From a virus (Duplodnaviria > Caudoviricetes), in the IMG/VR virus record IMGVR_UViG_3300033994_001593, positions 1-61,906 of that record: DNA of 61,906 nt. The stretch is one strand, 5' to 3'. Every line of letters begins with the position of its first letter. The stretch's first letter is position 1. A program made the position numbers and the translations under genes. Below are positions 4,038-58,981 of this stretch, one piece after another. Under the pieces are notes generated by a model. The model ran no database searches and had not been told where the DNA came from. It saw only the letters and a program-made list of their open reading frames with translations.

Positions 4038-4087
4038 CGTTATCGATCTAGCCAATCGGGCTGGGTCACAACCCCGAAGGGAGAAGG

Positions 4088-11287: not shown

Positions 11288-11584
11288 TCACTCACCTCGC
11301 CAAGTGGTGGTGACTTCTCCAAGGATGGCCCAGAACAGAGCATCGTGATCTTCCTTCGCCGGCAGCGGGCAGTCGTGTCGCAGAACGTGGCAGTATTCCT
11401 CGAGCAGCGTGTCGAGCATCATGCTCTCACTCGCCGCTGTGATTCGGATTAACGCTCGGCCCTCACCGAGGATGCACAGGCCGTGAAGCCCCGGCTGTCG
11501 CTTGACAACCCTGACCACGATCGGCGTCCTGGCTGGGTAGTGGCGACGAAGCCACCTCAACATTTTGCGCAGACTCGAAGGCAT
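11288..11584 (-). CDS. Zincin-like protein with degenerate HExxH
   Basis: DTLLEEYCH...HDALF pattern. Confidence 0.5.
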   Translation of the reverse strand: MPSSLRKMLRWLRRHYPARTPIVVRVVKRQPGLHGLCILGEGRALIRITAASESMMLDTLLEEYCHVLRHDCPLPAKEDHDALFWAILGEVTTTWRGE

Positions 11585-11903
11585 GGCAGAGGAGGGGTAG
11601 GTCGGTGAGTCGGATCGTGATCAGCCACCCGTGTGGGCTGCGGCTGGTGCGATGCATCACGACCGGGGTCTTGCGCCCAGCCTGCTTCACTGCCAGCCCC
11701 ATTGCTCTTGGTAGGTTGAGCCGCTCGACCCACTTCACCTCCCAAAAAAGGCTAGGCGTCTGGTCTACAAGGATGTCCGGTGAGTCCGGATGCCAGCCTG
11801 AGAACTGCTGCGACCGCCGGCAGGCCCAGCCAAACAGATCTCGGAGAGTCTGGCAGGCGGCCAACTCTGCGCGCTTGCCTTTGGCTCGGCTATTCAGGGC
11901 CAC
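11463..11903 (-). CDS. Holliday junction resolvase (PD-(D/E)xK)
   Basis: NSRAKGKRAE...SPDI...EVK motifs. Confidence 0.82.
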   Translation of the reverse strand: MALNSRAKGKRAELAACQTLRDLFGWACRRSQQFSGWHPDSPDILVDQTPSLFWEVKWVERLNLPRAMGLAVKQAGRKTPVVMHRTSRSPHGWLITIRLTDLPLLCHAFESAQNVEVASSPLPSQDADRGQGCQATAGASRPVHPR

Positions 11904-25866: not shown

Positions 25867-26055
25867 TCATTCGGCGGGCGGCGTCAGCCCCAGCCGCTCG
25901 CATTCCGCCTGCCATTCCGCCTTGTTTATGGTCTGCAACAGGAGAGTCCACTGCGGCCCAGCCGAAGTCACCTCGTCGGGCATGGTCACGCCAGCGACCG
26001 GCTGACCGCCCGCCGTGATGATCCAATAGGTCGGCTTTGCCGGATACTCAATCAC
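25867..26055 (-). CDS. Small tail-associated protein
   Basis: GTGA overlap with the DUF285 gene. Confidence 0.6.
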   Translation of the reverse strand: MIEYPAKPTYWIITAGGQPVAGVTMPDEVTSAGPQWTLLLQTINKAEWQAECERLGLTPPAE

Positions 26056-27784: not shown

Positions 27785-29757
27785 TAGCGGAAGGTACTCC
27801 AGAGATAGAGGTTGACGGCGGCGCGTGCGTTGTCCGAAAGGCGCGAATCAGAGAGTGTGCCAGAGGTCAGATCGCTGGCGTTGGTGCTTCCGCTGGTGAC
27901 GGTTTTCCAAGTTTGATCGCCAGCGAGGAACGTGGTGGAGGTGGCCGAGCCGCTGCCGAGCCGGGCCGTGGCGATTACACCGCTCTGAATCGCACTTGCG
28001 TCATGCGTATGAGAGAGAGGCGTGCGAGCATCCGACAGGCGGGCATCATTGCCGATGCAGACGCTACTGGCATCGCTGCCAGTTGGAATTCGGGAAATGT
28101 CTAACTCCCCCGAAACAATGTCCATCGCGTTATGCGCATGTCCGGAGGCGGCTTTCTCTGACAGTTGCACCTCCAAGCCCGTCACTTCGCTGATCATGTG
28201 ACCGTGGACGGCGGCGGCGTATGAGCCGCTTGGCTGCTTGGAATTCAGCGCGGCCTGCAAGCCAGTGGTGTCGGCAATCACATGCTGATGCGAGGTCGCG
28301 GCCTTGGCATCGAGCAACGATTGCACCGCAGACACGGCGCGGGTGTTCGTGAAATAGAGATTGGTGCTGCCTTCGGCAATCGCGTCGGTCGAGCCGGGGG
28401 AGGCGACGATCTCGACATACTGCGTTCCTGCCCACCGATAAATCTTGCCGTTGTTGATCGTGAGGTACAGTTTCCCCTCTTCACCGCTTGTGGGCAGAAG
28501 GGATGCGTTGTCCACTTCGATCACATCATCAACGTAGGACGGCAGTTGCGTGGCTGGCACCTTGCCGCCGACGAGCGTGGCGTAATCACCAGCGGTCTGC
28601 TTGTTGTCGAGGGCCGCTTGCAAGCCAATGATCGCGGAGATGCCGTGATTGTGGACTGACTGTGCGTAGGAACCGGAGGGCTGCTTGGAATCTAAAGCCG
28701 CCTGCAACCCAGTGGTGTCGGCAATCACATGGGAATGGACGGTCGCAGCGTAGGAACCGGCGACTTGCTTCCCGTCCAACGCTGCCTGCAAGCCATCGAC
28801 GGCACTGATTATGTGGGTGTGTACCGCATTAGCGTATGAGCCAGTGGGCTGCTTGCCGTCGAGTGCGGTCTGTAGCCCGTTGACCGTCGAGATCGCTTGC
28901 TGCCCAGTGTGCGTTGCGCGATCCCGCAGTTGAGCGTCGGTCGCGTTGGCCGTCGCCCCGCTCGCGATGCCGTCGAGTTTCGTCTTGTCGGAAGACGCAC
29001 CCCACCATGCCTCGATTGCGGATCGCACCACCGCATAGGCCAGCCACCGCGAGGCGGTTGGATCGTAAGTGATCTGGATCGCGCTGTTGACCGGGATCAC
29101 AACATCGCCCCCGGTGGGCGAGATCACGCGATTGGGTGCCGCCGACAGGGTGGATTGGTGTGCGATGGTGATGGGGAACGAGCCGACGTTATGCAGCGTG
29201 ACCGACGAGCCTGCCGATGCGACGAAGCCGGTGATCGTGCGCGGCGCATCCGACGAGAGGCGGGCGTTGTTCGCGCCCACCGACAGAGCGTAGTTGTTCT
29301 GGTCGGAAGTGATCGTGGTCGGTGAGTGGAAGGCCGCAGCGGAACCCGCGAGGTACACACCGAAGAATGCGTCAGTCGCCGCCGGGGCCGCGGCAAACGT
29401 GATCTGCGAGCCACTCACCGTGTAGGCCACTTCCGGCTGTTGCGTCACGCCGTTGAGCATGACGAGCAGCGAGGCTGCGGTGGCGGGCGTGACCGAAGTT
29501 GTGCCGATGACGAGATCAAACGTCGTGGTCGAGCCATTGAACGTGAGCGAGTTGAGAGTTCGGTTGAGGGCCGACGCGCCGCCAGAGCCGCCCACGCCAC
29601 CCACGATGTACGGCAGCGAGTTGTATGCAGTGGTGCCGTCACCAACCTTCAACTTGTTCGTGTCCGTTTCAAATACGATCTGCCCCGCCAACGGGACTTC
29701 GTTGGCTGCGGTCAGGGCGGCAAGGGTGCCGCGTCGTTGTTGGACAATGGGGGGCAT
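27784..29757 (-). CDS. Long tail fibre protein
   Basis: Mtd/hyaluronidase-like N-terminus (RRGT...ETDT..LKVGDG); HxH...GLQxALDxKQ repeats; 23-bp DNA repeat at 28262 and 28709. Confidence 0.85.
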   Translation of the reverse strand: MPPIVQQRRGTLAALTAANEVPLAGQIVFETDTNKLKVGDGTTAYNSLPYIVGGVGGSGGASALNRTLNSLTFNGSTTTFDLVIGTTSVTPATAASLLVMLNGVTQQPEVAYTVSGSQITFAAAPAATDAFFGVYLAGSAAAFHSPTTITSDQNNYALSVGANNARLSSDAPRTITGFVASAGSSVTLHNVGSFPITIAHQSTLSAAPNRVISPTGGDVVIPVNSAIQITYDPTASRWLAYAVVRSAIEAWWGASSDKTKLDGIASGATANATDAQLRDRATHTGQQAISTVNGLQTALDGKQPTGSYANAVHTHIISAVDGLQAALDGKQVAGSYAATVHSHVIADTTGLQAALDSKQPSGSYAQSVHNHGISAIIGLQAALDNKQTAGDYATLVGGKVPATQLPSYVDDVIEVDNASLLPTSGEEGKLYLTINNGKIYRWAGTQYVEIVASPGSTDAIAEGSTNLYFTNTRAVSAVQSLLDAKAATSHQHVIADTTGLQAALNSKQPSGSYAAAVHGHMISEVTGLEVQLSEKAASGHAHNAMDIVSGELDISRIPTGSDASSVCIGNDARLSDARTPLSHTHDASAIQSGVIATARLGSGSATSTTFLAGDQTWKTVTSGSTNASDLTSGTLSDSRLSDNARAAVNLYLWSTFR

Positions 29758-30326
29758 TAGAGCGAGCCGCAGTCGATGACGATGTTGCTGTTGAGTTTCG
29801 CCGCCGTAACGCTGCCGTCAGTCGGGGTGCGTTGATCGGAGAGCCGCGTGTCCGATCCGATCACCACCTGTGTGCTTGTGGCATTGCCCACCGCAGGAAC
29901 GTCACGGGTGGCGGCGGTGCCAGCGTCGGTGATCGCTGAAACGGTGTGCTGGTGAACGAGAGCCGCCTTGCCGTCGAGGGCCGACTGCAATCCATCGACC
30001 GCGCTGATCGTGTGCTGATGGACGAGCGGGGCGTAAGCGGCAGCGAGGGTGCTGTTGAGATCAGTGATCGCGGCGACGGTGTGGGTGTGGACGAGTTGAG
30101 CGTATGACCCAGCCGACTGCTTCCCTGCGAGTGCTTCGGTCAAGCCCGCCACATCCGCGATGGCGATGTCGTTGTTGATGTACCCCAGTGAATTCCACGG
30201 GGTAATGCCGTCGCCAACCTTCAATCGGCTGGTGTCGGTTTCAAAGACAATCTGCCCAGCCGCTGGCGTCTCGTTCGCAGCGGCGAGGGCGGCGGCGGTG
30301 CCGCGGCGCTGCTTAAAGACGGCCAT
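29757..30326 (-). CDS. Short tail fibre protein (paralogue of 27784..29757)
   Basis: Same N-terminal module and HxH repeats. Confidence 0.8.
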   Translation of the reverse strand: MAVFKQRRGTAAALAAANETPAAGQIVFETDTSRLKVGDGITPWNSLGYINNDIAIADVAGLTEALAGKQSAGSYAQLVHTHTVAAITDLNSTLAAAYAPLVHQHTISAVDGLQSALDGKAALVHQHTVSAITDAGTAATRDVPAVGNATSTQVVIGSDTRLSDQRTPTDGSVTAAKLNSNIVIDCGSL

Positions 30327-31961: not shown

Positions 31962-33290
31962 TTACGCCATTCTCCCGGCGAGCTGGCGGATGATGTCAGT
32001 CGTTTGACCAGGCTGCGCCTGCGGCTGGGGCTGCTGCATCGGGGGCTGGGCGGGGGGCATTGGGGCGGGCTGCTGCACCGGCGGCCGCTGCAACTCACGC
32101 AGCCTCTCGCGGGAGAGGATGTTGATCTGGACGGGCTGGCCGCCTTGGCCCTGCTGAGAAGGCTGGCTTGGTGCCGGCTGCTGCGGCTGGGCCTCACCAA
32201 AGGCGGCCCCATACAGATTAGATAGGCCCCGGTAGGCCATCGGAATGCCGTAGCGAGCCGTGAGGCCAGCAACCGGAAGGCCGACAACAGTAGCAGCCGT
32301 TGACACTCCTGGGTACTTCCGGAAGGCTCCCGCCACGGCAGAAGGCGCCGCTGCGACCGCCCTGACGATTGGATCTGTCTTGGACACAGAAGCCGCCCAG
32401 TTCTGGGCCTTCTGGTCTGCCGCGCCATCCACCTTTTGTGCGACCTCATCCTTAGTGGCTGGCTGAATGCCAGGGCTGGCTGGCTTCGCTGGCTCGGCCG
32501 GCTGCGACTTAAAGACCGGCCCCCGCTCGCCTGTCATGTCTTCGGCGGTGAGTTTCGACCAATCGCCCTTGCTGGCGTCCTTGCCAACGATCATCGGATC
32601 GCGGTTCGCCCCATTCCACTCAATGCCCTCCAGGCTGCCGGTTTCCTTGACCTTCGCGACGTTGGCCTTGGACGCCTCCGAAGCTTTGAGGCGGGCGGCC
32701 TTCTCTGCGGAGATCTTCCTCTGTGAGGGCTGCGGCACGACCGGAGGCACCTCCCCAGGCGTGGCTCCCATCGGAGCGTCAGCCCTGGCGGTTTCTTCGC
32801 CTGGGACTCGAGACTCGACGGCATCGCTGGCATTGGGATCCTTGCCGCGGATTCGGCTCGGCCTGCTGGCGCCTTCCTTGATGCTCGAGTCAGTCTCTCG
32901 GAGCTGCTTGAGGCTCATCCCCAGCATCTGATCCGGCGTGTAGCCGTAGTTCGACGCGCCGATGGACTCCATCAGCTTCAGTTTTTCGTCATCGATGAAC
33001 TGCTTTGCGGTCGAGTGCGGGTCTTCGGCAAGAAAGATCGACTTGATCTGGCTGTTGGAGTAGCCGGCATCTTGGAGCTGCGGGATGTACTCTTCATCCA
33101 GTTGCCTTGCGGCAACGGAATCGACGCCGAGCTGGTTGCCACGCTCCACCCAATCGACCGCTTTGGCCTTGTCTGGAGCGCCACCACCGCCGACCGAACG
33201 AGCCTTTGGCGCGTCGGCCTTGGAGGCGGCCTTACCTGCGTTGGCTGCTGCCTTTTGCGCGTTCTTCGCTGCTGCACCGGGATTAGCCAC
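31962..33290 (-). CDS. Putative internal virion protein
   Basis: GAGG RBS; Ala/Lys-rich N-terminus, hydrophobic segment, Pro/Gln tail ending TDIIRQLAGRMA. Confidence 0.7.
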   Translation of the reverse strand: MANPGAAAKNAQKAAANAGKAASKADAPKARSVGGGGAPDKAKAVDWVERGNQLGVDSVAARQLDEEYIPQLQDAGYSNSQIKSIFLAEDPHSTAKQFIDDEKLKLMESIGASNYGYTPDQMLGMSLKQLRETDSSIKEGASRPSRIRGKDPNASDAVESRVPGEETARADAPMGATPGEVPPVVPQPSQRKISAEKAARLKASEASKANVAKVKETGSLEGIEWNGANRDPMIVGKDASKGDWSKLTAEDMTGERGPVFKSQPAEPAKPASPGIQPATKDEVAQKVDGAADQKAQNWAASVSKTDPIVRAVAAAPSAVAGAFRKYPGVSTAATVVGLPVAGLTARYGIPMAYRGLSNLYGAAFGEAQPQQPAPSQPSQQGQGGQPVQINILSRERLRELQRPPVQQPAPMPPAQPPMQQPQPQAQPGQTTDIIRQLAGRMA

Positions 33291-42116: not shown

Positions 42117-42649
42117 TCCTTAACCTTCCTGCCGTACTTCTCCACGACCATCGCCCGAAGATCGCTGGTCTTCATTGAGGGATGGTTCTGCCGCTCGTGC
42201 CGCATCATCTCCTTGGTGAGACGCTCGCTGAGAGGCTTCGACTTGGGGCGATCGACCGGAGTTCCCTTATGCTCAACGGAACCCGACACGGTCAGATTCC
42301 GCTCCATCGCCACGCGGCGGATGTCATCCACCGAGGACACCCATGCCTTGGGGTCGGCCACGCCACGACTGTCAGCCAGCCCGCCTGCGTAGTACTTGCC
42401 GCTGACGCTGATCCCCGCTCGCTTTGCCAGAGTCACGATGTTTCGGGCGTGATCCTCTGGCATCTGGTCGAGCTGCTGGTTGTTCATCCGGCCCTCCATG
42501 AAGGCGCGGTCGGTTCCCTTCACCCCCGGCGGCCTCTGAAGGGCGCACATCTCGGCCCACCTTTCGGTCGCCCCTTCGGATCGCAACCTCACGAAGAACT
42601 CCTCCACGCTGCGGCCGGCGGCTCGGACTTCCGGAGGAACGTCGATCAT
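42113..42649 (-). CDS. Hypothetical protein
   Basis: ATG 42649 after AAAAGG; ATGA overlap with adaptor. Confidence 0.7.
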   Translation of the reverse strand: MIDVPPEVRAAGRSVEEFFVRLRSEGATERWAEMCALQRPPGVKGTDRAFMEGRMNNQQLDQMPEDHARNIVTLAKRAGISVSGKYYAGGLADSRGVADPKAWVSSVDDIRRVAMERNLTVSGSVEHKGTPVDRPKSKPLSERLTKEMMRHERQNHPSMKTSDLRAMVVEKYGRKVKE

Positions 42650-42905
42650 GCCTTTTGAGGTAGGCGAGGGCTTTCCCAACTCCATCAGAATCGTCTCCCA
42701 AGAGGGCTATGGCAGAGTTGCAGGCTTTGCACAGCAGCCCGCGGATGACATTCGTTTCATGGCAGTGATCTACGCACAGCAACTTTGCCTGGTCGCAGAT
42801 TTCGCACCTCCCCTTGTTTCTGGCCTCGAGGCGGCTAAATGCTGCCAGGGTGATTCCGTACCTCACCCATAGATTGGATTGGCGCTTTCGCAGAGCCTTG
42901 TCCAT
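42372..42905 (-). CDS. Endonuclease VII-type HNH nuclease (probable homing endonuclease)
   Basis: YGIT...CEIC...VDHCH...RGLLC..CN...AYL. Confidence 0.9.
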   Translation of the reverse strand: MDKALRKRQSNLWVRYGITLAAFSRLEARNKGRCEICDQAKLLCVDHCHETNVIRGLLCKACNSAIALLGDDSDGVGKALAYLKRHDRRSSGSPSRRPQRGGVLREVAIRRGDRKVGRDVRPSEAAGGEGNRPRLHGGPDEQPAARPDARGSRPKHRDSGKASGDQRQRQVLRRRAG

Positions 42906-45245: not shown

Positions 45246-46959
45246 TTCGTCCTCCGGATTGAGGCCCCAAGTAGACATAGGAACCCTCTTCGCTTGTCAG
45301 CCGTTTTTTTCGCTGGGCCAGCCACCTCACCCACCACGGGTCTGGCTCGGTCGATCGCTGCGGGGGCCGGTGGTAATGGGGGCGGTATGCGCAGATGTAC
45401 TCCAAGCACTGACAAAGATGTACTTCACCCTTGGTGTTGGGCCTGTCGGTGACGATGGCCGCGCCGGCAACGTGATTGACCTGTTTCCGGTAACGCTTGA
45501 TCTCCCGCTCGAGGTCGGGAACGGCACCCTCCAAGACCCGCAGGATCGGGGTTCCGATCGGCCGGATGTGGAGTGAGTTTCGGGTGGACTCGCAGCGGGC
45601 AAGGATGTCATCGCAGCCGGCCAGGAACGACGCCCCGGTGATCTGGCTGCGGATGTTTCGTTTGACGAGCTGCTCGGTGTACTGCTCGACCGGGAGGCGG
45701 CCCGAGCCGATGTCGCGAAGCCGACCACCGTGGGCGTCGATGATGAAGGCGTGGAAATGCCACCCCCGCACCTTCTTCTCGAAGTTCTCCCCGAAGATCT
45801 GGGCGTTGCATTGCCGCATGTAGAGCTGGTCATAGACCAGCCAGAACTCCTCGGTGGGAGGCACTGCCACGAAGAGGCAGGCAGTCACGGCGTGGCCTGG
45901 GTCGATCACGGCATAGCGGCACCAATCGTAGGGGATCTGCCCATCCTTCAGCTCCTCCCGCTTCATCCCGTGGATCCGCATATCAAAATTGGGATAGACG
46001 AGAACGGAGTCGGTGATGAAGTCACCCTCGGCTCGCATTCGCAGCACATCCTCGCCGGCCGCAGCCCACCGCTCGATGCTCTTCTTTTTCTCCTCATCAT
46101 CGATATGGGGGTTGTCCAAAAACCGCAGCTTGAACTGCCGGATCGGAGACTCTTCGCCTAGAGCTTGCTCGCTGGCATCAGCTCGCTCCTTGAGATTCAA
46201 GAGAGCGTTATTCGTGGAGTGCGGCATGGCCGACCAGCAAAAGACACCCTTGCGATCCGCGAGTCGTGCCTGGGCCTCGGGGATGTGCCGCTCGTCGTTT
46301 AAGTCCTCGTCAACGTGTATGCGTGTGGCACTGTACCCTTGCGCAGGCTCGCCTTCACTACTGAAGAAGTGAATAACCCAGCCATTAGTAAGGGTGCATT
46401 GCTGCATGTAGTTCGCACTCTTCAGCACCCAACTCGAGGCTTTGATCATGCGAGGAGGGATTAGCGGCGGCGCCGGCCTCGCCTCGGCCTTGCGATGAGC
46501 ATCAGCGACGGGGTTGTATGCCCGCCACTCACCCGTCGCCTCGTCCTTGATGATCTTGAAAGCGCCTGGGCCGAAGAGGTACGGCACCACGACCAATCCG
46601 ATGTGTTTCCAATCGCGGCCGATGATGACGAGGATCCCGTCCTTCTTGGGATACTTGTTGTAGGGATCCTGCCCCGTCACAGCTCGAGCATCTTCCACGA
46701 ACGTGCAAAGCGACTTGCCAGAGCGATTGCCGCCGATGACGAGGACTTCACTCGCTCGGCACTTGTGGATCTCCTCCTGCTGCGGGTTCGCCTTGTAGAG
46801 GCGCAGGGCCTCTGTCCTCCGCTCTCGCAGCTCGCTTTGCAGCTCTTTGAGGCTTTCTCGCTGGTACTCCGAGATCGTCGGGATGCTCGGCACTTGGGGC
46901 GGATTCACCTTCGGGTGCTTCTTCCTCCGGTTCGGGGAGGGCTTCTGCGGGTCGGACAT
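45238..46959 (-). CDS. terL: Terminase large subunit
   Basis: Walker A GGNRSGKS, Walker B IHVDE, nuclease IDPG; AAGGGAGA RBS. Confidence 0.92.
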   Translation of the reverse strand: MSDPQKPSPNRRKKHPKVNPPQVPSIPTISEYQRESLKELQSELRERRTEALRLYKANPQQEEIHKCRASEVLVIGGNRSGKSLCTFVEDARAVTGQDPYNKYPKKDGILVIIGRDWKHIGLVVVPYLFGPGAFKIIKDEATGEWRAYNPVADAHRKAEARPAPPLIPPRMIKASSWVLKSANYMQQCTLTNGWVIHFFSSEGEPAQGYSATRIHVDEDLNDERHIPEAQARLADRKGVFCWSAMPHSTNNALLNLKERADASEQALGEESPIRQFKLRFLDNPHIDDEEKKKSIERWAAAGEDVLRMRAEGDFITDSVLVYPNFDMRIHGMKREELKDGQIPYDWCRYAVIDPGHAVTACLFVAVPPTEEFWLVYDQLYMRQCNAQIFGENFEKKVRGWHFHAFIIDAHGGRLRDIGSGRLPVEQYTEQLVKRNIRSQITGASFLAGCDDILARCESTRNSLHIRPIGTPILRVLEGAVPDLEREIKRYRKQVNHVAGAAIVTDRPNTKGEVHLCQCLEYICAYRPHYHRPPQRSTEPDPWWVRWLAQRKKRLTSEEGSYVYLGPQSGGRNE

Positions 46960-47464
46960 CGATGGTTCTCCCTTGGAAGGCAGACAGGGCCTGCTCAAAT
47001 CTCTTGTTCAGCTCTTCCTCCAGCTCCTCCTCTGTCCAGAGCGTGAGAGGCTTCTTGGCGCCGCCGGAATCGACGTTCTTTGTGACCATCCGGCAGATCG
47101 TCTCGAGCAGCCGGTTGCGGGCTGACGAGCCAGGAGCAGAGTCCCAGTACTGCTTGACCAGCACGGCCGCCATGCCGCCCGTGCCGCCGAAGTACTGGAA
47201 GATCCGCTCAATCACCTCGGCGGTGTGCGGGATGTTGGAGCCGCCCTTGGAGGCAGAGCGAAGGAACAGATCGACGCCCGCCTCTTCGATCGCCTTGAGC
47301 GTTTCCTCCCGCTTGAGGGCCGCCCGATCCTTGCTCTCCTTCCGCTGCCTCGCCCGACAGTGGAGGCACTCGGCCGTGAAGATCTCGAGATCCTTCCGCC
47401 AACGGAAGTGCTGCTTATCCAGCGGGAAGGTGTTGCCGCAGACGTTGCACGTTCGCTCTTCCAT
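46748..47464 (-). CDS. Putative terminase small subunit with N-terminal zinc finger
   Basis: CNVC...CLHC; directly upstream of TerL; ATG 6 nt after a -10 box. Confidence 0.6.
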   Translation of the reverse strand: MEERTCNVCGNTFPLDKQHFRWRKDLEIFTAECLHCRARQRKESKDRAALKREETLKAIEEAGVDLFLRSASKGGSNIPHTAEVIERIFQYFGGTGGMAAVLVKQYWDSAPGSSARNRLLETICRMVTKNVDSGGAKKPLTLWTEEELEEELNKRFEQALSAFQGRTIDVRPAEALPEPEEEAPEGESAPSAEHPDDLGVPARKPQRAAKRAARAEDRGPAPLQGEPAAGGDPQVPSE

Positions 47465-47470
47465 GACCGG

Positions 47471-47500
47471 ATGATAAGCGGGGCTTTGCACGGTATGTCA
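47471..47500 (-). promoter_or_regulatory. Putative late promoter
   Basis: TGACAT-N18-TATCAT; same architecture at 50421 and 56235. Confidence 0.65.
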
Positions 47501-48167: not shown

Positions 48168-49316
48168 TTAAGCAGCCGCCGTGACCGGGGCGAGGAGGAA
48201 GAAATTCCGCGGCGAACGGAAACGGAGGTTGCCGAGAGATGAACAGGCGTACCTATATGCCTGCGTCTCCTCGTCGAAGAAGGGGCCTTCAGCCACGAAG
48301 AGCTGATTCTCAAGGCACCGCAGCTCCATGTTGCCGATCGACAGACCGTAGCCGCGTCCTGCTGGACAAGCGTACTCCGAGCAGACCTCGACGCCGTCGA
48401 GCTGGGTGACATCGGTGAAGCCCATCGACTTCAGACCGTTCTCCTTGCTCACAGCGATCCGTTCCTTGTCAGCGAACGTGTTGAGAAACTGGATGTAGAG
48501 CTGACGGTCGAGAACGACCATGTCGATCTGCGACTCCTTCGTGTCGTTCCGCTTGCACTGGTGGATGCCCTCGCGGATCGCGAACACGCAGTTCGACCGC
48601 CAGTTGCGGTTGCCCTGCGGGTTGAACGAACTCGCGTTGTAGTTGATGACCACAGGCGCGTAGAAGTCGAGTTCGCTGTCAACCGGCACGTTCGGCCAGG
48701 TGCCGGTCGGAGCATTGATCCGACCACCACCGTAGAAGCCGAGACGAGTCGAAAGACCCGCATAATTGTCATCCGGATAGCCGTAGCGGTCGGCCGTGTT
48801 GCCGGTCGTGCGCTTCGTCGCGACACCCGACGCGCTCTCATCGATGGTGCCGTCGTAGTGAAGAAACGAGTCCATGCCGTGGAAGTCGTTCTCTGCGCCG
48901 GCCGCATTGCCGTCCTTGTACGGCTGATACGAAAGGTGCATCTCGAGCGACTCTTGCAGACGGCTCGCCATCTTGCCGGCGACATCGACCAGAGCCTGCT
49001 GGCCGCGGTTCTCGAGCAGCTCTCGGCGGTACACCGCGTCAGTACTCGTAAAGCCACGCCAGGGCAGCTCGGCGCGCTTCCACATGTTGACGCGCGAGAA
49101 CGTCCGCGGAGTGTCGCCCGTGTTCCCGGTGACCGGGGCGTTGCGAAAACGGATGTTCCAATCGAAACCTCGGCCCGATTGGTTCATCACGACGTTGCCC
49201 GACTGCTCGAGCATGGCGAAGATCTTGAACTTCCGGAACGTCGCCAGCTCTTCTTCCCGAAGGTGCTGTACAATTGTCGTTCCGATGACCCGCGCCCAAT
49301 CAGTGGGACTCGCCAT
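48168..49316 (-). CDS. Major capsid protein
   Basis: 382 aa between scaffold-like and decoration-like genes; strong codon bias. Confidence 0.8.
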   Translation of the reverse strand: MASPTDWARVIGTTIVQHLREEELATFRKFKIFAMLEQSGNVVMNQSGRGFDWNIRFRNAPVTGNTGDTPRTFSRVNMWKRAELPWRGFTSTDAVYRRELLENRGQQALVDVAGKMASRLQESLEMHLSYQPYKDGNAAGAENDFHGMDSFLHYDGTIDESASGVATKRTTGNTADRYGYPDDNYAGLSTRLGFYGGGRINAPTGTWPNVPVDSELDFYAPVVINYNASSFNPQGNRNWRSNCVFAIREGIHQCKRNDTKESQIDMVVLDRQLYIQFLNTFADKERIAVSKENGLKSMGFTDVTQLDGVEVCSEYACPAGRGYGLSIGNMELRCLENQLFVAEGPFFDEETQAYRYACSSLGNLRFRSPRNFFLLAPVTAAA

Positions 49317-49340: not shown

Positions 49341-50399
49341 TCAGGCCAGACCTTGCTCTTGCAGTTGTGCCGCAAGTTTTTCAGCAAAGGTCATCGGCTT
49401 GGATGGAACTCTCGCGTCGGTTGTTGCCGCAGTCCGCTGGCTCGCAGTTCGCATGGCCTGCTGTCGCAGGAATTCCATGTTCTTTTGAGCAGCGGCATTG
49501 GCAGGATTCACGGGCTGCTGCGGTGCAGGCCGGGGGGCCTGTGCCGCAAGCTGCTGAACCTGTTGCGATCTCTGCATGTTCGCGAGGAGTAAATCTCTCT
49601 CGACCATGCGAGTCGCATACTCCCAACGGGCTTTCGCCCCTTGGATGCCCAGCGACCGTGCGTCCTGTATGTATTTTTGGGCGAGCAGACCCTCCGCAGA
49701 TGCATTGCCATTTTGATCGTAGAGCCAATCTGCGTTCTGCTGCTCTAAAGAGGACACAAACTGCTCCTCTTGCATCCTCCCCAATCGCTCTTGGACGATG
49801 CTTTCTGCCCGCTCGACGGCGACTTTCTCGACCATCGGGCCGAGGGCAGCCTGCGGATCCTCGAGGAACCTCTGAGCGAAGTTGGCCTTGTAAGCCTGGT
49901 ACTCGGAGAGGGCGTGGCGGGCGTCGAGCGGGGCATCGGGCGAGATCATCTCGCGACCGTTCTCGTCGCGGGTGAGGTACTGCTTGTAGGCATCCCGCAC
50001 CTTGGGCGGATTCCACCAGGGGGATTCCTGCGGCTGCGGAGCCTGGGGCTGGGCCGCCGGCTGGGCCTGCTGCTGCCGCGACTGCATCCACTCCTGGAAC
50101 GGCTCCTTGTACTGGAGATATTCCGACGCGACCGGGATGATGCTCTGGTACTGCTGGAGGGCGTGGGTCGCGGACTGCTCACGCTGGAGGGCTTCGTATA
50201 GCCGGGAGGCTATGGCCCGATCGTCCGACCCCTGGAACTGCGGGAGCTGGCGGAATGCGCCCCAGACTTCTCCGGTTCCTGCGGAGGACGCCGATCCCTC
50301 TGACGGCGACGGCGACGAATCAACCTCTGGTGACGAGGTGGACTCGACTGCGGATTCTTCGGAGCCAATGTCGGAGATTTCTTCTTCGGCCATGTTCAT
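49341..50399 (-). CDS. Capsid scaffolding protein
   Basis: Acidic Ser-rich N-terminus, Gln-rich coiled coils, C-terminal MTFAEKL helix; directly upstream of MCP. Confidence 0.75.
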   Translation of the reverse strand: MNMAEEEISDIGSEESAVESTSSPEVDSSPSPSEGSASSAGTGEVWGAFRQLPQFQGSDDRAIASRLYEALQREQSATHALQQYQSIIPVASEYLQYKEPFQEWMQSRQQQAQPAAQPQAPQPQESPWWNPPKVRDAYKQYLTRDENGREMISPDAPLDARHALSEYQAYKANFAQRFLEDPQAALGPMVEKVAVERAESIVQERLGRMQEEQFVSSLEQQNADWLYDQNGNASAEGLLAQKYIQDARSLGIQGAKARWEYATRMVERDLLLANMQRSQQVQQLAAQAPRPAPQQPVNPANAAAQKNMEFLRQQAMRTASQRTAATTDARVPSKPMTFAEKLAAQLQEQGLA

Positions 50400-50457: not shown

Positions 50458-53400
50458 TTATTGACCCTGAGACTTCCTCCAGCGACTGTACTCTCGCTCT
50501 TGGGGCGTCATGTTCCAATCCGTCATGCCGCTAAACCACTCATCCTGCCGCTGCTGCTCGGCCTCTTCACGCTTCTGGTCAAGGTTCGGATCGTCTGGCT
50601 GGACATCGCCCATGAAAGCGTTGTCTGCATACGGAGTGGTCATCGCTCGCCAGTAGTCCGACCCGAGGATGCCAGCAGTCACGCCTTGGTCTGTGACAAG
50701 GTCGGACGGGATGTCACCGAACTGAACCTTGGCGGCACTTGCCGCCCCCTTCCCCAGCCCCTTGCCTGCCTCCTTCAAGGCTCCGATCAGACTCTTGGAG
50801 GTGGCGGCGGCCCCCAGCCCTCGGGCGATGTTGGCCCCGGCGAACGGAACAGATGCGGCCACGGCGATGGGGCTATCGACCGACTTTCGCGGGAATTGGG
50901 CCAGCATCTCAAATGCCGGCGTTCCCCAAGTGCGAGGCGTCTTGTCGCCCGTCACCCGATCCCACGCCCCCTGGAACTGCGGATAGAACGAAGACTCATA
51001 GGACTCCCGCTTCTCGGCGTCGGCCCTGTTGAGGGCGATGTGCTGGCGAAACTCCTCGGGCGTCATCCCGTCCTTGATGACTTGCTGCGTCCGCTCGATG
51101 TGCTGGTCGCGATCTTGGGTCGTGTTCCACGGCTCCATCAAGGCTTGGTAGTGGGCCGACAGGCTCCACGGCTTTCCGCCCGTTGCCTTGGCCCATTCAC
51201 TGTCGCTGTCGAGCTGGCCGACCATGCCAATGGGATTGCGGTTCCATTCCGAAGCGAAGCGATACATCGGCATCGTCATCTGCCCCTGCCACGACGAGGT
51301 GTCGCCGCCGGCCTTCATCAGACCAGTGAGGGTGCGGGCGTCCCAATCGGAGTAGAGCGGTTTGCCGTCCGCGTCTCGGAACGCTGGTGGGCGGTCGGCT
51401 GGCTGGGAGGTAGCGGCCGACCAGAACTGATTCGCCCGCTTTGCTCGAGTGGAGATCGCATCACCACCAAGAAGCTCGTCGGCACCGGCTGCGCCTCCAC
51501 CCGAGAGGAAGTTTGTAGCCACTGACATGGAGTTGGCGTAGGACGGGGCGTGTTCACCGTCCTGCATCGTGCGGAGCAGCTCATAGCCCGCCTGGGCTTG
51601 GAAGTCTTCGGCGCTGCCTGGGGAGAGCATCCAATCGGCCTGGTCGCCGTACTGCTGCCGCCACTCCGCGAGCTGCTGCTCGCTGATCGGCTCGGCCTTG
51701 GCGTACTTGCCGCCGGGGGCGCTGGCCTTGAGCGATGCCATCATCCTGCCGATCGCCTGCTCGGCCACTTGGCTGACCTGTCCAGTGCTGCCCTCAAGCC
51801 GAGCCACGACCTCGCCCATCACCTTGGCTCTCCCTTCCTCTGGGAGCCGCGGGGCAAACACATCGAGGTACTCACCGACGAACTGTGCAGGCGTGATCCG
51901 AGCGTTTCCATCGCCATCTCCAGCAAAGAGTCCGCGCTGGCCGTCGCCAGCAAGCGAGCCGTCGTTCGCCGCGCCGACGCGGATGATCGGCTGGTTCATC
52001 ACATCGGCCACGTTCTGCCTGAACTGCTGGTGGTCGGGGGAAACATCGCCGGCCTGCTGCCGCTGCTGATGGGCCTCCCACTCTGCTGGACTGATTGCCA
52101 TTGAGAAGTCGAAGTCACCCAACACCGGCCTGACGAGATCCGCAGTGGTTCCGCCGCTGCCGGTGGGGAGCTGGCGGGATTCATTGACGCTCTGGGCCTG
52201 GCCCATGATCGGGGCCGCCATGAGGCCGGCGGGCATGTCGCGGAGGCTGGCCTGCATGTCGCGAACACCGTCCTCGGGGGATCGCGATCGAACCTTGGCG
52301 AGGTGGGCCTGACGCTGGTCGAAGGCGGCCTTGGCCTCTTGGATGAGGTCTGCGTCGGAAGCGTGGCTGGCCTTCTCTGTGTCTGGGCCGACACCACGCA
52401 GGGCAGCAGCAAGCTCGGCCTCCGTCTCGAAGTGTGGGCCGCCGGCAACATAGCTGCCGTAGATGTCTCGAATCTGCTCTTCGTAGTTCTTGGCGGCCCC
52501 CTCATAGTCGTTCGGTTCCATGTCATCATCAACGGAACCCTGCGGATCGTCATCCTCAAAATCCACGTTCCCGTCGCCATCGTCCATCTGCTCAAACTTG
52601 TTGTCCCAATCTTCAACGAGCTGCTCCCGCTGGGCGTCGAGCTTCTCGGCCGTCTTGAAATCGCCGCTTTCGTAGGCCGCGTCCACTTGCTTCGTGAGGC
52701 GGGCGATCTTCCGCTGCGTCTGCCACGGCATGGCAGCTCGGAGAACATCGTCGGACAGGGGGAGGCGCGGGGCGGCGTTTGCCTCCCTATTGCTCCCGGG
52801 AGCGATGCCGGTTGCGGTGCCGAGCGTGATCGCGGCCGGGATGCCCTTGGTGATGATGTTCTTTCGCATCTCGTCGGAGATGACGCCTCGCCAGCCGGAT
52901 GAAGTGGCTTCCTTTTGGGTCGCCGCGACCTTGTCTTGCAGGGCCTGCAACCGCTCCATCGACTGCCGCATCTGGCCGTATTGCTCAATATCTCCCATGA
53001 TCTGCGGAATCAACTGCCCCGCGCGTTCTCTGCCAATCAATGGCTCTAGACGGTCATACAGCTCTTTGCCGGATGCTCGCTCTGCAACAATGGAGCGGGG
53101 GGCGATTTCTTGCGGGTTCCTGAGCCTCGCCGCCGCGGTGTTTTGCAATGTATGGGCAATGCCCCAGAGTCTGTCCGAAACATCCTTTTGTCGCTGGCTG
53201 GCAGCGAGAGGGGCTTTGCTGTTGGGGGCCGTTGCCTCCCAGACCGTGCGATCAGTGCCGTCCACCTCCTTCATAATCCTGCGCTGGATGCTGTTCAGAA
53301 TTTCTTCTGAAGAGTCGTCTAAGTTCCGCAGGGCAACCTCTGCGCTACCCATCTCGCCGCGCATGTTCGGATCAAACCCTGCACCGCCTTCAAGTCCAAG

Positions 53401-54672
53401 TTGGCCGCGAAGCCTCCCCACCCTAGCCGCATCCAGCGGGCTAAACCCGTGCTGCTGCCGCCAGTTAGGGTCTTGCAGCGCCTCTCTGGCGGAATAGAAA
53501 TCCTCCGCGCCGGTGTTATCCCAGATTGTGCCACGATGTTCGGCATAGGCTAAGTATTGCCGAATCTCTTGCTTTGCTTCGACTGGAAGCGAAGAAGTAT
53601 CAAGGATACTTGGGTTGGCTTGGAGCATCTCCTCTGCAATATGAATGTCATCCGTGCCGGCGATGCCTAAAATCCGGTCTTCGAGCGCTGCGGCCTTTTC
53701 TTGGTTTTCTCTGGAATTCAAGCCAGAGTAGTCTGGTGTGCTTTGCTCTGGTGTGCTTTGCGCGAGTGCCTCATCGTAGATGGCATCGTTTCTCGGCCGG
53801 CTGGTAGATTCCCATCCGCCCAGCTTCTTGCCTTGCCGCTCCAGCAACTGCGGGATCATGTTGCCGTAGAATTTTTCTGATTTTTCTAACGGGAAGCCTA
53901 CGGCCCGAGAGATGTCCTCGGGGTATGCGACTTCTACTGCGCGGTAGCCACCGCGAGCCGCATCGAGCAACGCTGATTTCAGTTGCAGCTCTTGCCAGAA
54001 ATCGCGTGCTGCAAAAGGAATTGACGATGGGTCTGCCATGCGTTGCGATTGATTTTGAACATCTGATTGCAGCTCAACGATCCGCAAGGCATCGTCGTTG
54101 CGATCGGTTCGCAGATGGGCAACGACGTTCCCGCCGCGATTTCCCGTGAAGTGGTTGCGGAGTCTATCGTCCTGCCAATTCTTGTTGGATTCTGGAAACG
54201 GATCCAATGGCTGGGTGAGAAGTCGCTCGCGGTAGTCCGGCCCGCCAAGCCCATGCTGATCCCATTTTGGCTGGACGCTATAGCCGCTCTGGCCCTCGCC
54301 GCCTATTGCCACTGGCGATGGGGTGGCCCCACCTTCGCCCAAGATCACATTCTTGTGCGTGAACACTGGACTGTTCTCACGCACGGCGGCCAGCAGCTCG
54401 TCGCGAGTGACGGTCGTGCGTCCATCCACGACAGAGTCGAGATCCACGGCCTTCAGCTCCCAGCCGGGGATCCCGTCCTTGTACCGCTTGAGCAGGCCGG
54501 GGAGTTCCTGCACCCTGACGTTCTCGGGGAGTCCCTGCACGGCTCGCTCAAGGCGGGAGTAGATCCCAGGCCCAGGCTTGTACTCGAGGTAGCCGGCGAC
54601 GTTGTCGCCCTGCTTGAGGGTTCGGATGAGGTTTTCGCCAGCCTTGGCTGCGACCTTGGGATTCGGTGCCAT
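50458..54672 (-). CDS. Giant modular (polyvalent-type) virion/ejection protein
   Basis: 1404 aa from ATG 54672 (TAATG coupling); N-terminal domain with YRExLL, HF, AHLR, ELQSD motifs. Confidence 0.7.
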   Translation of the reverse strand: MAPNPKVAAKAGENLIRTLKQGDNVAGYLEYKPGPGIYSRLERAVQGLPENVRVQELPGLLKRYKDGIPGWELKAVDLDSVVDGRTTVTRDELLAAVRENSPVFTHKNVILGEGGATPSPVAIGGEGQSGYSVQPKWDQHGLGGPDYRERLLTQPLDPFPESNKNWQDDRLRNHFTGNRGGNVVAHLRTDRNDDALRIVELQSDVQNQSQRMADPSSIPFAARDFWQELQLKSALLDAARGGYRAVEVAYPEDISRAVGFPLEKSEKFYGNMIPQLLERQGKKLGGWESTSRPRNDAIYDEALAQSTPEQSTPDYSGLNSRENQEKAAALEDRILGIAGTDDIHIAEEMLQANPSILDTSSLPVEAKQEIRQYLAYAEHRGTIWDNTGAEDFYSAREALQDPNWRQQHGFSPLDAARVGRLRGQLGLEGGAGFDPNMRGEMGSAEVALRNLDDSSEEILNSIQRRIMKEVDGTDRTVWEATAPNSKAPLAASQRQKDVSDRLWGIAHTLQNTAAARLRNPQEIAPRSIVAERASGKELYDRLEPLIGRERAGQLIPQIMGDIEQYGQMRQSMERLQALQDKVAATQKEATSSGWRGVISDEMRKNIITKGIPAAITLGTATGIAPGSNREANAAPRLPLSDDVLRAAMPWQTQRKIARLTKQVDAAYESGDFKTAEKLDAQREQLVEDWDNKFEQMDDGDGNVDFEDDDPQGSVDDDMEPNDYEGAAKNYEEQIRDIYGSYVAGGPHFETEAELAAALRGVGPDTEKASHASDADLIQEAKAAFDQRQAHLAKVRSRSPEDGVRDMQASLRDMPAGLMAAPIMGQAQSVNESRQLPTGSGGTTADLVRPVLGDFDFSMAISPAEWEAHQQRQQAGDVSPDHQQFRQNVADVMNQPIIRVGAANDGSLAGDGQRGLFAGDGDGNARITPAQFVGEYLDVFAPRLPEEGRAKVMGEVVARLEGSTGQVSQVAEQAIGRMMASLKASAPGGKYAKAEPISEQQLAEWRQQYGDQADWMLSPGSAEDFQAQAGYELLRTMQDGEHAPSYANSMSVATNFLSGGGAAGADELLGGDAISTRAKRANQFWSAATSQPADRPPAFRDADGKPLYSDWDARTLTGLMKAGGDTSSWQGQMTMPMYRFASEWNRNPIGMVGQLDSDSEWAKATGGKPWSLSAHYQALMEPWNTTQDRDQHIERTQQVIKDGMTPEEFRQHIALNRADAEKRESYESSFYPQFQGAWDRVTGDKTPRTWGTPAFEMLAQFPRKSVDSPIAVAASVPFAGANIARGLGAAATSKSLIGALKEAGKGLGKGAASAAKVQFGDIPSDLVTDQGVTAGILGSDYWRAMTTPYADNAFMGDVQPDDPNLDQKREEAEQQRQDEWFSGMTDWNMTPQEREYSRWRKSQGQ

Positions 54673-55583
54673 TACTGCGTGAGTCCTTTGAGGATGTGGC
54701 TGACGGTTGGGACGCTCCACGAATTGCCGAGCGCCTTATATCGCTGGTAGTCGGACACGCCTTCGGTGTACCCCTGCGGGAAGCCGAACAGGCCCTCAAT
54801 CTCCTGCGGCGTCATCCTGCGGAATGAGCCGTCCTCCAGTTGCAGGGCGTTGTACGGGACTCCCTTGCGAATCACGCTCGGGATGGTGCGGGCCTTGGGG
54901 TCATTGATGTGGAAGCCGTGCTTCTCAAAGTGCGTTCGGCCGTCTGGCGCTTGTCGGTTGAGGTAGGCCACGCCCTTCGGGGAGATCTGGTACTTGTCGG
55001 GTACGGAGCTGAGCAGGGCATCGCGGAAAATCGCCTGCGACGGCGAGTACTCACCAACCGGGATGTTCGTCCAGAACGCCCGCGGCCTCGCCATCGCCCC
55101 GAAGTCCTTGGCGTCGAGAAACACCGGATCGACACCGAGAGCCTTGGAGATGACCTCAATGTTCTTGTCGCCCTTCGACCCTCGCGGCACCACGTTCTCA
55201 ACTAGGAAGTGCTTGGGCTGGAATTCGTCCAGCATCCGCGGCACCTCCCAGAACAGGCTCGACCGCTCACCATCCAGACCCTTGCCCGTGACGTTCGCCC
55301 TGGAGAGGTCTTGGCAGGGAAAGCCAGCACAGAGCAAATCTGCGGATCCATCCGCTCGAGACGCCGACCGCACGTCGCCCAGGTGCTGAATGTCGGGATA
55401 GTTCTTGGCTGCGATGGCGGCGGCCTTGGGGTCGTTTTCGTAGGCGATGTACGAACCAACCGGGATGCCAGCCCCATCCAAGGCGGCCCTGGCACCGGCA
55501 ATTCCATCAAACCCAGATACAACCTTGATCGGCCGCTGGGCGTTCTTGGCCGCCTTGGCAATGCTATTCGGATTCGGAGCCAT
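54672..55583 (-). CDS. DNA cytosine-5 methyltransferase
   Basis: FDGIAG, GFPCQD, ENV, RPR, ALGNS. Confidence 0.93.
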   Translation of the reverse strand: MAPNPNSIAKAAKNAQRPIKVVSGFDGIAGARAALDGAGIPVGSYIAYENDPKAAAIAAKNYPDIQHLGDVRSASRADGSADLLCAGFPCQDLSRANVTGKGLDGERSSLFWEVPRMLDEFQPKHFLVENVVPRGSKGDKNIEVISKALGVDPVFLDAKDFGAMARPRAFWTNIPVGEYSPSQAIFRDALLSSVPDKYQISPKGVAYLNRQAPDGRTHFEKHGFHINDPKARTIPSVIRKGVPYNALQLEDGSFRRMTPQEIEGLFGFPQGYTEGVSDYQRYKALGNSWSVPTVSHILKGLTQ

Positions 55584-55950
55584 TAACCCACTTCCTTCTC
55601 CACATGCGGATCCGCGCGCGGTGTTCCTTGCGGCGGCGCCACCACTTCAAAATCAAGTCCACGATGAGGGGCAGGAGGATCTGGAGGGCGACGATCCAGA
55701 TGGAGCCGAATTGCTTTTCGCCATAGACGAGGGCCATGTGCCGCCTGACGCTCTTGCTGAGATCGAGCATCGCGGCCATCTCGCCGTCGCTGCCGGCCGG
55801 CGAAGCGGAGAGCAACTCATCGGGCCACTCATGGACGGCGGCTGAGACGGCATCGAATACCGCCTCCTTGCCGGCCAAGTTCTTGCGAACTGGTAGCTCC
55901 GACCAGACCCATTCCTGCAATTGCCCGAGCGTCCTGGTTGGCGATGGCAT
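55564..55950 (-). CDS. Hypothetical protein with C-terminal membrane helix
   Basis: IWIVALQILLPLIV followed by a basic tail. Confidence 0.7.
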   Translation of the reverse strand: MPSPTRTLGQLQEWVWSELPVRKNLAGKEAVFDAVSAAVHEWPDELLSASPAGSDGEMAAMLDLSKSVRRHMALVYGEKQFGSIWIVALQILLPLIVDLILKWWRRRKEHRARIRMWRRKWVNGSESE

Positions 55951-58126: not shown

Positions 58127-58981
58127 CTAGTTCCCGCAGTAGCCTTCACACTCATCTTGAAATCCACGAAATAGCATTTGGCCGGTACGTTCATGCTCGG
58201 GCCGAAGATCCACTTGCTCGAGCGGGACACACTGACGGTGGAGGAAACGCTGGGCATCTAGGCCGGTGCCGGTGCGGCACACATGGTCGATCTCCACGGC
58301 CCTGGCCCAGCCCTTGGGGTCGTGGTCGCGGAGCAGCCGCCACTCCTCGTCCTTCTTGAATGGGCAGAAGACGCAGGCCGACCGCGGCACGGGGTGCGGC
58401 ACTCGCTCTTTGAGGTAGGCCATGCAGTCGCCGCGGGTCATCTGCATGTCCCAGAGCGGGAATTCGACCTTCCAGTTCTTGGGTTTTGCCAGGAACCGCT
58501 CCTTGACTCGGATCACCCGCTTCGGCTCGTCAAACGACAGGCCCATGTACTGGACGCACACATCGTCCTTGGGGATGCCCTTGCCGGGGGCCGCGCCGAA
58601 GACCATCTGCCGGATAGCCTGCTCAATAGGAACGACCTTGAAGTCCTTCGTGCATTGCCGCTGCACCGCCCCCATTCGACCGTCAGGGTGCTTGGTGAAC
58701 GCCGGGATGGAGATGTAGTGACCGCCGTCACGGCGGGAATTGCCGCTGGCGTCCGTTCCCTTGTCGAGGGCATCGCCCAGCCTGCCGGCCGTCACTCGCA
58801 GGATCGGCGGGCCACCCAGCGAGTCCAGCCAATCAAGGTGCTTGTAAACGTCATCCGGCTCCTCCTGCGTGTCCGCGAAGATAGCCACATCGAACTTGTG
58901 AACCTCACCCTCAAGGGCCATGAGGAACAGGGTGGTCGATTGGACGCCAGCCCCCAGGTTTAAAACGTGCTTTTCAGTCAT
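58127..58981 (-). CDS. PAPS-reductase-like (PP-loop, adenine nucleotide alpha-hydrolase) protein
   Basis: LGAGVQS, FADT, RQCT..FK, SACVFCPF, ECEGYCG. Confidence 0.8.
   Translation of the reverse strand: MTEKHVLNLGAGVQSTTLFLMALEGEVHKFDVAIFADTQEEPDDVYKHLDWLDSLGGPPILRVTAGRLGDALDKGTDASGNSRRDGGHYISIPAFTKHPDGRMGAVQRQCTKDFKVVPIEQAIRQMVFGAAPGKGIPKDDVCVQYMGLSFDEPKRVIRVKERFLAKPKNWKVEFPLWDMQMTRGDCMAYLKERVPHPVPRSACVFCPFKKDEEWRLLRDHDPKGWARAVEIDHVCRTGTGLDAQRFLHRQCVPLEQVDLRPEHERTGQMLFRGFQDECEGYCGN

Follow-up and report, generated by a model that had tools for sequence, protein, structure and literature searches.

A short N-terminal leader on a C5 DNA methyltransferase and its neighbours, a candidate head-loading tag in an uncultured temperate phage lineage

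Why would a DNA methyltransferase encoded among the head genes of a phage begin with the same kind of short peptide as the large protein encoded next to it? The question is raised by IMG/VR record IMGVR_UViG_3300033994_001593 (Caudoviricetes), a complete virus record of 61,906 bases that was analysed whole and is called the window here; judging from an encoded integrase, it belongs to a temperate phage. In its structural operon, the gene for a C5 cytosine DNA methyltransferase (MTase) is followed by that for a 1404-aa protein (the large protein). A preliminary description of this DNA had proposed that both proteins, together with a 442-aa protein encoded on the same strand, share an N-terminal leader that brings the MTase into the head, and the N-termini and coordinates quoted there for all three are correct in the sequence. 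To our knowledge, the rules by which phages pick proteins for enclosure in the head have been worked out in detail for very few model phages. Comparison with related phages describes the leader as a modular N-terminal tag of about 16 to 20 residues in a large uncultured lineage. The packaging idea is thereby partly supported: the comparative support is strong, while the loading itself we infer.

The leader of the methyltransferase and of the large protein

The MTase is a single domain plus the leader, and its catalytic core is well recognised (PF00145, E = 1.1e-32, 114.2 bits against a cutoff of 22; TIGR00675, 107.6 bits against a cutoff of 100.65). The segments FDGIAG, FPCQD, ENV, and GNSWS are all found in its translation and are invariant in the homologue alignment; we take these to be motifs I (FxGxG), IV (PCQ), VI (ENV), and X (GN-S/A). 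In the AlphaFold model (mean pLDDT, 86.7), residues 1 to 15 have a pLDDT below 50, a helix spans residues 5 to 16, and the first core strand begins at residue 19, so the leader does precede motif I, as had been proposed. By contrast, the second C5 MTase of the window is leaderless, its N-terminus going directly into motif I. Motif I was found in 108 of the best 120 MTase homologues; it is preceded by an extension of 10 to 45 aa in 42 of the 108 and of more than 45 aa in 4, while the other 62 start at the core, with fewer than 10 aa ahead of the motif I strand. The extensions fall in a clade at ≥48% identity, whereas proteins at ≤47% identity mostly start at the core. The possibility raised in the preliminary description, that the closest homologues lack the leader, is not what was found: close homologues keep it, and it is the distant ones that start at motif I.

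The large protein begins at an in-frame ATG (position 54672) that overlaps the MTase stop codon as TAATG and yields 1404 aa. Twelve homologues were found at 39 to 49% identity, and all 11 with an intact N-terminus have the same kind of leader. In pairwise BLASTP, the N-termini of the window MTase and the large protein align at just E = 0.011. Ranks are given among the 2038 candidate starts of the window: a hidden Markov model (HMM) built from the leaders of MTase orthologues alone placed the large-protein start 2nd, and one built from the leaders of large-protein orthologues alone placed the MTase start 3rd. By these reciprocal ranks the two leaders are related beyond chance, and only when the family context is included. 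The start ranked third with the MTase-leader HMM belongs to an open reading frame (ORF) at 11463..11903 that encodes a RusA-like resolvase; its N-terminus belongs to the resolvase family, and it was rejected as a tag-bearer.

The 442-aa protein fares less well. Its GTG start has an AGGAGG 7 nt upstream, and 3 of the 5 related records searched have orthologues with an Ala/Lys-rich start of the MA.. type. The start ranks 14 and 43 of 2038 with the two leader HMMs and 50 against 148 MTase and ADP-ribosyltransferase (ART) leaders. The protein has no family match in Pfam or PHROGs, its Atlas scores are low, and its model is poor (pTM, 0.25). The common leader that had been claimed for three proteins thus stands for the MTase and the large protein and is weak for the 442-aa protein, which can be named only as a doubtful third bearer.

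Apart from its leader, the large protein has one recognisable domain (the N-domain), followed by an extension without an assigned domain, and it has no Pfam or PHROG family. A model of residues 1 to 330 (pLDDT, 67) leaves residues 1 to 36 below 50 and shows a helix at residues 5 to 21 detached from the fold. Foldseek searches of the N-domain against the PDB gave best matches that were all GNAT proteins (E = 0.02 to 0.1; TM score by target, 0.38 to 0.45). The best VIA score (Z = 7.3) lies within the noise range of that tool, and the top rows were almost all acetyltransferases. With no sequence family match for the domain, we describe it as GNAT-like on the strength of its predicted fold, an assignment that is unproven. 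Matches among the predicted viral structures of BFVD (E = 1.6e-7 to 1e-4) are phage proteins of 760 to 1400 aa, some annotated "Large polyvalent protein associated domain" and one carrying a lytic transglycosylase domain. A profile search of 1.84 billion representatives returned 1001 matches at E ≤ 1e-3; among the best 150 of these were 43 proteins of at least 1000 aa, up to 7103 aa, and in 41 of the 43 the domain is internal, the match starting at profile position ≥20 and excluding the leader. The label of virion protein is putative for the large and 442-aa proteins alike, since it derives from gene position and, for the large protein, also from these fold and profile links to polyvalent-type proteins.

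Relatives of a short form, 450 to 570 aa long, correspond to the first ~620 residues of the large protein and end in a hydrophobic tail. The matching internal segment of the large protein has invariant columns from R595 to G622, and the short forms end at this point. No homologue of the C-terminal ~780 aa was found in short-form loci, and we therefore gave up the notion that it is represented by downstream genes encoded separately in the short-form phages. From residue ~969 onward (51703-51768, minus strand), the large protein has a segment like one flavour of the leader (score of 47 against an MTase leader), which is also found in L015 and L016 (L numbers denote related loci) and may be left over from a fused tagged module or may be noise.

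The leader on unrelated enzymes of related phages

Related loci were obtained by an alignment-based scan; a single-protein scan of viral contigs for relatives gave no matches. In sister genomes we define a slot as the place between a conserved upstream 128-aa ORF and the large gene. It holds a leader-bearing MTase in L002, L003, L004, L020, and L021 and is empty in L015, where the 128-aa ORF abuts the large gene. In L017 (4916-5899) its occupant is a gene for a 327-aa protein in which an ART-PolyVal core comes after a near-identical leader; the Pfam match is sub-threshold (E = 4.3e-6, 28 bits against a cutoff of 31.2), and a precomputed database annotation gives PF18760. The 128-aa ORF is 85 to 89% identical in 7 related loci, and its 3' end and ribosome-binding site (RBS) stand before whichever gene fills the slot, so that at the DNA level the slot gene takes over both; in the window, the MTase ATG lies 20 nt inside this ORF. 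The L002 MTase and L017 ART genes have their first ~40 nt in common and then diverge completely, and over 15 leader codons they differ by 4 synonymous and 4 replacement changes, two of which are conservative.

Within the length range searched, 3143 homologues of the ART-PolyVal protein were found at E ≤ 1e-3. Among the 120 listed, 118 have the HGS motif, and 107 of those 118 have an extension of 10 to 45 aa. Compared with these ART leaders, 33 of the 42 MTase extensions match above the maximum of shuffled controls (37), with a median score of 50.5 versus 25. Exact 7-mers common to the MTase and ART leader sets number 27, and the leaders of one MTase (P0048) and one ART (P0143) are nearly identical.

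The leader also links the N-domain gene to its neighbours. In L005 the N-domain leader has its best match in the neighbouring ART gene (43; next best, 24), and a neighbouring gene likewise gives the best match to the N-domain leader in L008 (41 versus 28), L030 (40 versus 31), and L035 (42 versus 25). BLASTP sorts these neighbours into ART and two further families, one from L008 and L030 (E = 3e-25) and one from L014 and L035 (E = 3e-20). The former shows a weak resemblance to kinases (Pfam ABC1, E = 0.019; a PDB kinase, E = 0.23), and the latter has an HExxH motif; a PDB sequence search and NCBIfam gave nothing usable for either. Their sole similarity to ART lies in the N-terminal 18 aa (72 to 83%) and in a hydrophobic Gly/Ala C-terminal tail (50 to 71% over 20 to 25 aa). 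The search of related genomes for other cargo at this locus, suggested in the preliminary description, thus yielded ART in the L017 slot and two further families near head genes. The leader also passed the test of conservation across unrelated cargo that the preliminary description had set for its idea, being found on C5 MTases, ART-PolyVal proteins, the two families, and the N-domain. It tops genes at other positions as well, after other upstream genes.

Chimeric proteins combine the same parts differently. P0347 consists of the tag, a PGPGIYSRLERA box, and a kinase-like core, and P0295 of the first 74 aa of the N-domain protein, an HExxH protein, and the tail; P0356 (56 aa) is tag, box, and tail and nothing more. 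The tail, common to many cargo and short-form N-domain proteins (for example, at L005:7301-8143, L017:4916-5899, and L008:2534-3241), comprises a basic stretch, a hydrophobic Gly/Ala/Pro run, and acidic residues; the window MTase does not have it. A family of ~90 aa starting with MD-x-[DE]-GD-K-[IV]-R adjoins the N-domain gene in most short-form loci (for example, at L006:11395-11670, L018:540-815, and L033:3989-4264), and its start weakly resembles the leader core at noise-level scores of 40 to 47. A loose scan of all loci at a score of ≥40 gave 179 matches in 10,578 starts, many of them noise from Pro-rich queries, and only matches at real gene starts with clear margins were kept.

Leaders also covary with the genome. 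When the cargo leaders of 7 genomes were paired with N-domain leaders, only the true pairing reached the observed summed score (1 of 5040 permutations; 1 of 144 when permutations were restricted to two clades). One further locus is an independent second instance of the same design: in L039, a 360-aa MTase and a 466-aa protein (encoded at 3227-4309 and 6835-8235) flank an SU10 portal gene (PF23899, E = 4e-170) and have a common but different 70-residue N-terminus (38 of 70 residues identical, E = 3e-21).

A candidate head-loading tag and the alternatives

Comparison of genes thus shows a tag that can be separated from the catalytic core, is common to at least five protein families, stands in the head-gene cluster with cassettes that vary at a fixed slot, and is best matched within genomes. 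With moderate confidence, we read it as a head-loading address on swappable effector enzymes that works like the capsid-targeting sequence (CTS) of T4 or the N-terminal 30 residues of P1 DarB. The first ~16 to 20 residues of the MTase would be a flexible, helix-prone address peptide, put on a variable set of enzymes whose genes lie beside those for scaffold and capsid: the C5 MTase, the ART-PolyVal ADP-ribosyltransferase, the two families without a name, and the large protein with its GNAT-like N-domain. A procapsid component (scaffold, inner face of the capsid, or portal) would recognise the tag at head assembly, and the tagged enzymes would be enclosed and then ejected together with the DNA upon infection. 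Once inside the cell, the MTase would draw on host S-adenosylmethionine to methylate the incoming genome or host DNA before phage genes are expressed. The whole would represent a split-up version of the polyvalent proteins that are made elsewhere as one giant polypeptide. Binding to a head component, packaging, ejection, and the target of the MTase are steps that we infer.

A wider proposal is more tentative, and we would put it somewhat short of an even chance. It holds that a polymorphic cargo system extends across the uncultured lineage, in which the tag, often with the hydrophobic C-terminal tail, marks interchangeable enzymes (C5 DNA methyltransferase, ADP-ribosyltransferase, kinase-like, metallopeptidase-like, and acetyltransferase-like proteins) for capsid enclosure and injection. 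Cassettes would be swapped by recombination at the tag-coding sequence, and the C5 MTase, once packaged, would methylate the genome on its entry, before restriction could act.

Several known systems resemble this arrangement. T4 internal proteins IPI to IPIII and the ADP-ribosyltransferase Alt have a common, cleaved N-terminal CTS (PMC9024508). The likeness is one of design, a short N-terminal peptide on unrelated proteins that include an ADP-ribosyltransferase, with the CTS proteins enclosed in the head and injected and heterologous cargo addressable by the CTS (PMC9024508, PMC5512222). As in T4, one peptide is common to unrelated proteins, here the MTase, ART, two other families, and the N-domain protein, all of them putatively head-internal. 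Unlike here, where neither a protease gene nor a cleavage motif was found, the T4 CTS is removed by a prohead protease. T4 is also a myovirus with a scaffolding core, whereas the window belongs to a temperate phage with an SU10-type adaptor. CTS and tag have no sequence similarity, and packaging by the tag is putative. Because no protease or cleavage site was found, the tag is not a member of the T4 CTS class.

In P1, the N-terminal 30 residues of DarB suffice for capsid targeting (PMC9024508). DarB is thus, as the MTase would be, a DNA-modifying enzyme that is carried in the head and addressed by its N-terminus. The two differ in build, DarB being a 250-kDa multidomain antirestriction MTase-helicase and the MTase a 303-aa single-domain C5 enzyme. 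They differ also in signal: the authors report no consensus among the N-termini of the Dar proteins (PMC9024508), whereas the tag is recognisable across families.

For polyvalent proteins and for MuF- or portal-fused effectors, packaging and injection were inferred from architecture and context (Iyer et al. 2017, PMC5512222). Like the polyvalent proteins (PMC5512222), the tagged set brings ART-PolyVal, MTase, peptidase-like, and acetyltransferase-like domains into the context of head genes, and the best 150 N-domain profile matches include internal domains of 1000- to 7100-aa proteins. Polyvalent proteins join from two to 15 disparate domains in one polypeptide, whereas the MTase and the other tagged proteins are separate genes, each with its own tag; because it is a single domain, the MTase is not a polyvalent protein. 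A fused arrangement occurs in phage LS06-2018-MD07, where a protein of at least 3100 aa with ART-PolyVal (weak), class I MTase, and DUF7178 domains adjoins an "internal virion protein" gene; the ART domain of that large polypeptide has nothing tag-like ahead of it. In MuF- and portal-fused effectors, too, the N-terminal module for incorporation into the head is constant and the enzymatic cargo varies (PMC5512222). Here the module is instead a peptide of 16 to 40 residues that is neither a MuF nor a portal domain, and the MTase, the large protein, and the cargo proteins gave no match to the Pfam MuF domain (Phage_Mu_F). Encapsulin cargo-loading peptides are short terminal peptides on unrelated cargo encoded beside an HK97-fold shell. 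Cargo of extracellular contractile injection systems, which are phage-tail-like particles, has N-terminal packaging signals. Both offer an analogy only, being cellular nanocompartments or tail-like particles and not a DNA-filled virion.

A number of observations weigh against a head-loading tag. No prohead protease was found by family match among the 61 ORFs (Pfam and/or PHROGs), a divergent one being possible, and no conserved cleavage motif was seen at the leader ends, unlike in T4. There is no cultured close relative: when 50,697 phage records were searched by tblastn for the capsid protein and for the N-domain, no match was obtained. Only one cultured phage, the podovirus phiGT1, turned up with an ART homologue in its head cluster; this protein, gp5, has a C-terminal tail and is encoded between the portal and scaffold genes, and the main text on phiGT1 is silent on detection of gp5 in virions (PMC10386132). 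The window's own leader is a diverged variant with modest scores, the three window starts ranking only 68, 256, and 31 of 2038 against 107 ART leaders alone. An exception to the clade pattern of MTase extensions, P0028, is the MTase of L035, which has only 6 residues before the core. It is encoded between the N-domain gene and the scaffold gene and yet has no leader, so the leader is not obligatory at that locus. The pairing of leaders within genomes is imperfect as well: L017 and L005 score higher with the leader of another genome, and L002 comes within one point of a tie. Pairing is poor in L002 and L017, and in L014 the cargo leader differs in flavour from that of the N-domain. Finally, the ART, kinase-like, and HExxH labels derive from sub-threshold Pfam matches or motifs (ART-PolyVal, 23 to 30 bits against the cutoff of 31.2).

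Of the other explanations, we give most weight to a docking or oligomerisation helix, not in itself a capsid address, by which the separate enzymes bind one another or the large N-domain protein in a noncovalent polyvalent complex that may or may not be packaged, although we think it unlikely. Such a helix would fit the occurrence of the tag as the large protein's own N-terminus, the longer pieces of that N-terminus carried by some cargo (the box in P0347, the 74 aa in P0295), the C-terminal tail common to many cargo, and the best matches of leaders within a genome. A large protein that served as the receptor would need no tag itself, however, and in both models the helix is not packed on the folded domain. 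The absence of a tag from giant fused homologues fits, under either reading, a tag for free-standing proteins only. The slot raises a different possibility, namely, that the common 5' sequence is mainly a recombination handle or scar, with cassettes swapped between two leader-coding repeats and the peptide a by-product. Here the slot contents (MTase, ART, or nothing), flanked by the conserved ORF and RBS and by the large gene's leader, and the abrupt divergence of the L002 and L017 genes after ~40 nt are as expected. A mere by-product is nonetheless improbable in our estimation, given that the reading frame of the peptide is maintained in MTases with as little as 48% identity and in ART homologues by the thousand, that synonymous changes equal replacement changes in the L002 and L017 leaders, and that the tag occurs at other gene positions after other upstream genes. 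A recombination role is in any case compatible with a peptide function, and the slot data suggest both a recombination role and an address role.

About equally improbable, or slightly more so, is a tag that serves the producing cell, as a translation start context, a timing or degradation signal, or a membrane- or pole-targeting signal. The tight translational coupling in the operon and the hydrophobic character of the neighbouring 128-aa ORF and the cargo tails would suit such a role. Conservation is, however, at the peptide level, with varied codons and upstream contexts; membrane anchoring gives a DNA MTase no obvious gain, and the other MTase of the window is untagged. Chance resemblance of short, Ala-rich, low-complexity N-termini could explain the pairwise E value of just 0.011, the weak match of the 442-aa protein, and the noise of the loose scan at scores of 40 to 47. 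It is contradicted for the MTase and large protein by the HMM ranks of 2 and 3, the leaders that exceed all shuffled controls, the shared 7-mers, the single permutation of 5040, and the separate 70-aa case in L039; we regard it as very improbable as a general explanation and as possible for the 442-aa protein alone.

Should the head-loading reading be true, injected effectors, including antirestriction enzymes, could be predicted from sequence in uncultured phages, and the tag would offer a short natural means of loading proteins into phage heads. The signal, if real, is readable from sequence, is carried by at least five protein families and by metagenomic proteins in the thousands, and covaries with the genome. 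On the wider proposal, the MTase would be the first small single-domain C5 enzyme so used, and the tag a natural head-loading signal, defined by its sequence, in phages other than T4 and P1. Searches of an incomplete literature set found no paper on such a common tag for C5 MTases or free-standing ART-PolyVal proteins.

The head module and other features of the window

The structural operon is long, lies on the minus strand, and comes after the helicase, Erf, exonuclease VIII, and RusA module (Table 1). From 55.9 kb, its order is the 128-aa ORF, the C5 MTase, the large protein, a scaffold-like protein, and the capsid protein, so that, as the preliminary description had stated, the MTase gene lies upstream of scaffold and capsid on the same strand. 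The order continues with an HNH-like gene, a 586-aa ORF, the portal (phrog_156, a weak match), endonuclease VII, an SU10-type adaptor (PF24175, 28.5 bits against a cutoff of 27), a 1675-aa protein with small ORFs, the 442-aa protein, and tail fibres. The 586-aa ORF, which has no family match, is a candidate terminase. The scaffold-like protein has no family match in Pfam or PHROGs; its gene is kept upstream of the capsid gene in 13 of 13 nonredundant related loci with a capsid gene. The capsid protein candidate is 56 to 96% identical among relatives. A promoter and terminator scan of 47.5 to 58.5 kb was uninformative: it gave 1 promoter-like site versus 2.4 expected and 7 terminator-like sites versus 8.9 expected, with none on the minus strand from the MTase gene to the capsid gene.

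Table 1. Positions of the leader-bearing proteins and of other features in the window
Feature	Position	Strand	Remarks
Helicase, Erf, exonuclease VIII, RusA module	11-17 kb		
Integrase	16895-17821	+	
442-aa protein	31962..33290	-	Ala/Lys-rich N-terminus; GTG start
Major capsid protein candidate	48168..49316	-	phrog_9953 major head protein, E = 1.4e-7
Scaffold-like protein	49341..50399	-	Acidic N-terminus, Gln-rich; directly downstream of the 1404-aa gene
1404-aa protein	50458..54672	-	Leader, conserved N-domain, hydrophobic Gly/Ala tail-like segment, clade-specific ~780-aa extension
Internal segment of 1404-aa protein, residues ~595-626	52795..52890	-	Matches C-terminal tail of short forms, ART, and other cargo
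N-domain of 1404-aa protein, residues ~37-297	53782..54564	-	Predicted GNAT-like fold
Leader of 1404-aa protein, residues 1-19	54616..54672	-	
C5 cytosine DNA MTase, 303 aa	54672..55583	-	Leader and complete catalytic core
N-terminal leader of MTase, residues 1-19	55527..55583	-	Precedes motif I strand
Upstream 128-aa ORF	55564..55950	-	Hydrophobic, basic C-terminus
Second C5 MTase, 543 aa	59972..61603	-	PF00145, E = 1.2e-52; outside head module

The C-terminus of the 128-aa ORF consists of a hydrophobic helix and then an Arg/Lys/Trp-rich tail, and from its sequence this product beside the head genes looks like a membrane protein. Near the second C5 MTase, a PAPS-reductase-like protein is encoded at 58127-58981 (minus strand; phrog_424, E = 1.2e-38), and the two may form a separate DNA-modification module. 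The run of terminase, portal, and adaptor genes in the structural operon is interrupted by the endonuclease VII gene (42372-42905, minus strand; PF02945, E = 7e-16) and by another ORF that is weakly endonuclease VII/HNH-like (46748-47491, minus strand); both look like homing-type insertions. Two tail-fibre proteins (27784-30326, minus strand) combine phage tail repeats with Mtd_N, the N-terminal domain of the major tropism determinant. A reverse transcriptase was not noticed, template repeats not having been searched for, and a diversity-generating system is not indicated. Also among the tail-fibre genes is that of a 472-aa protein (26052-27470, minus strand), in which a region of DUF285 repeats (E = 1e-54) is accompanied by a weak PKD domain.

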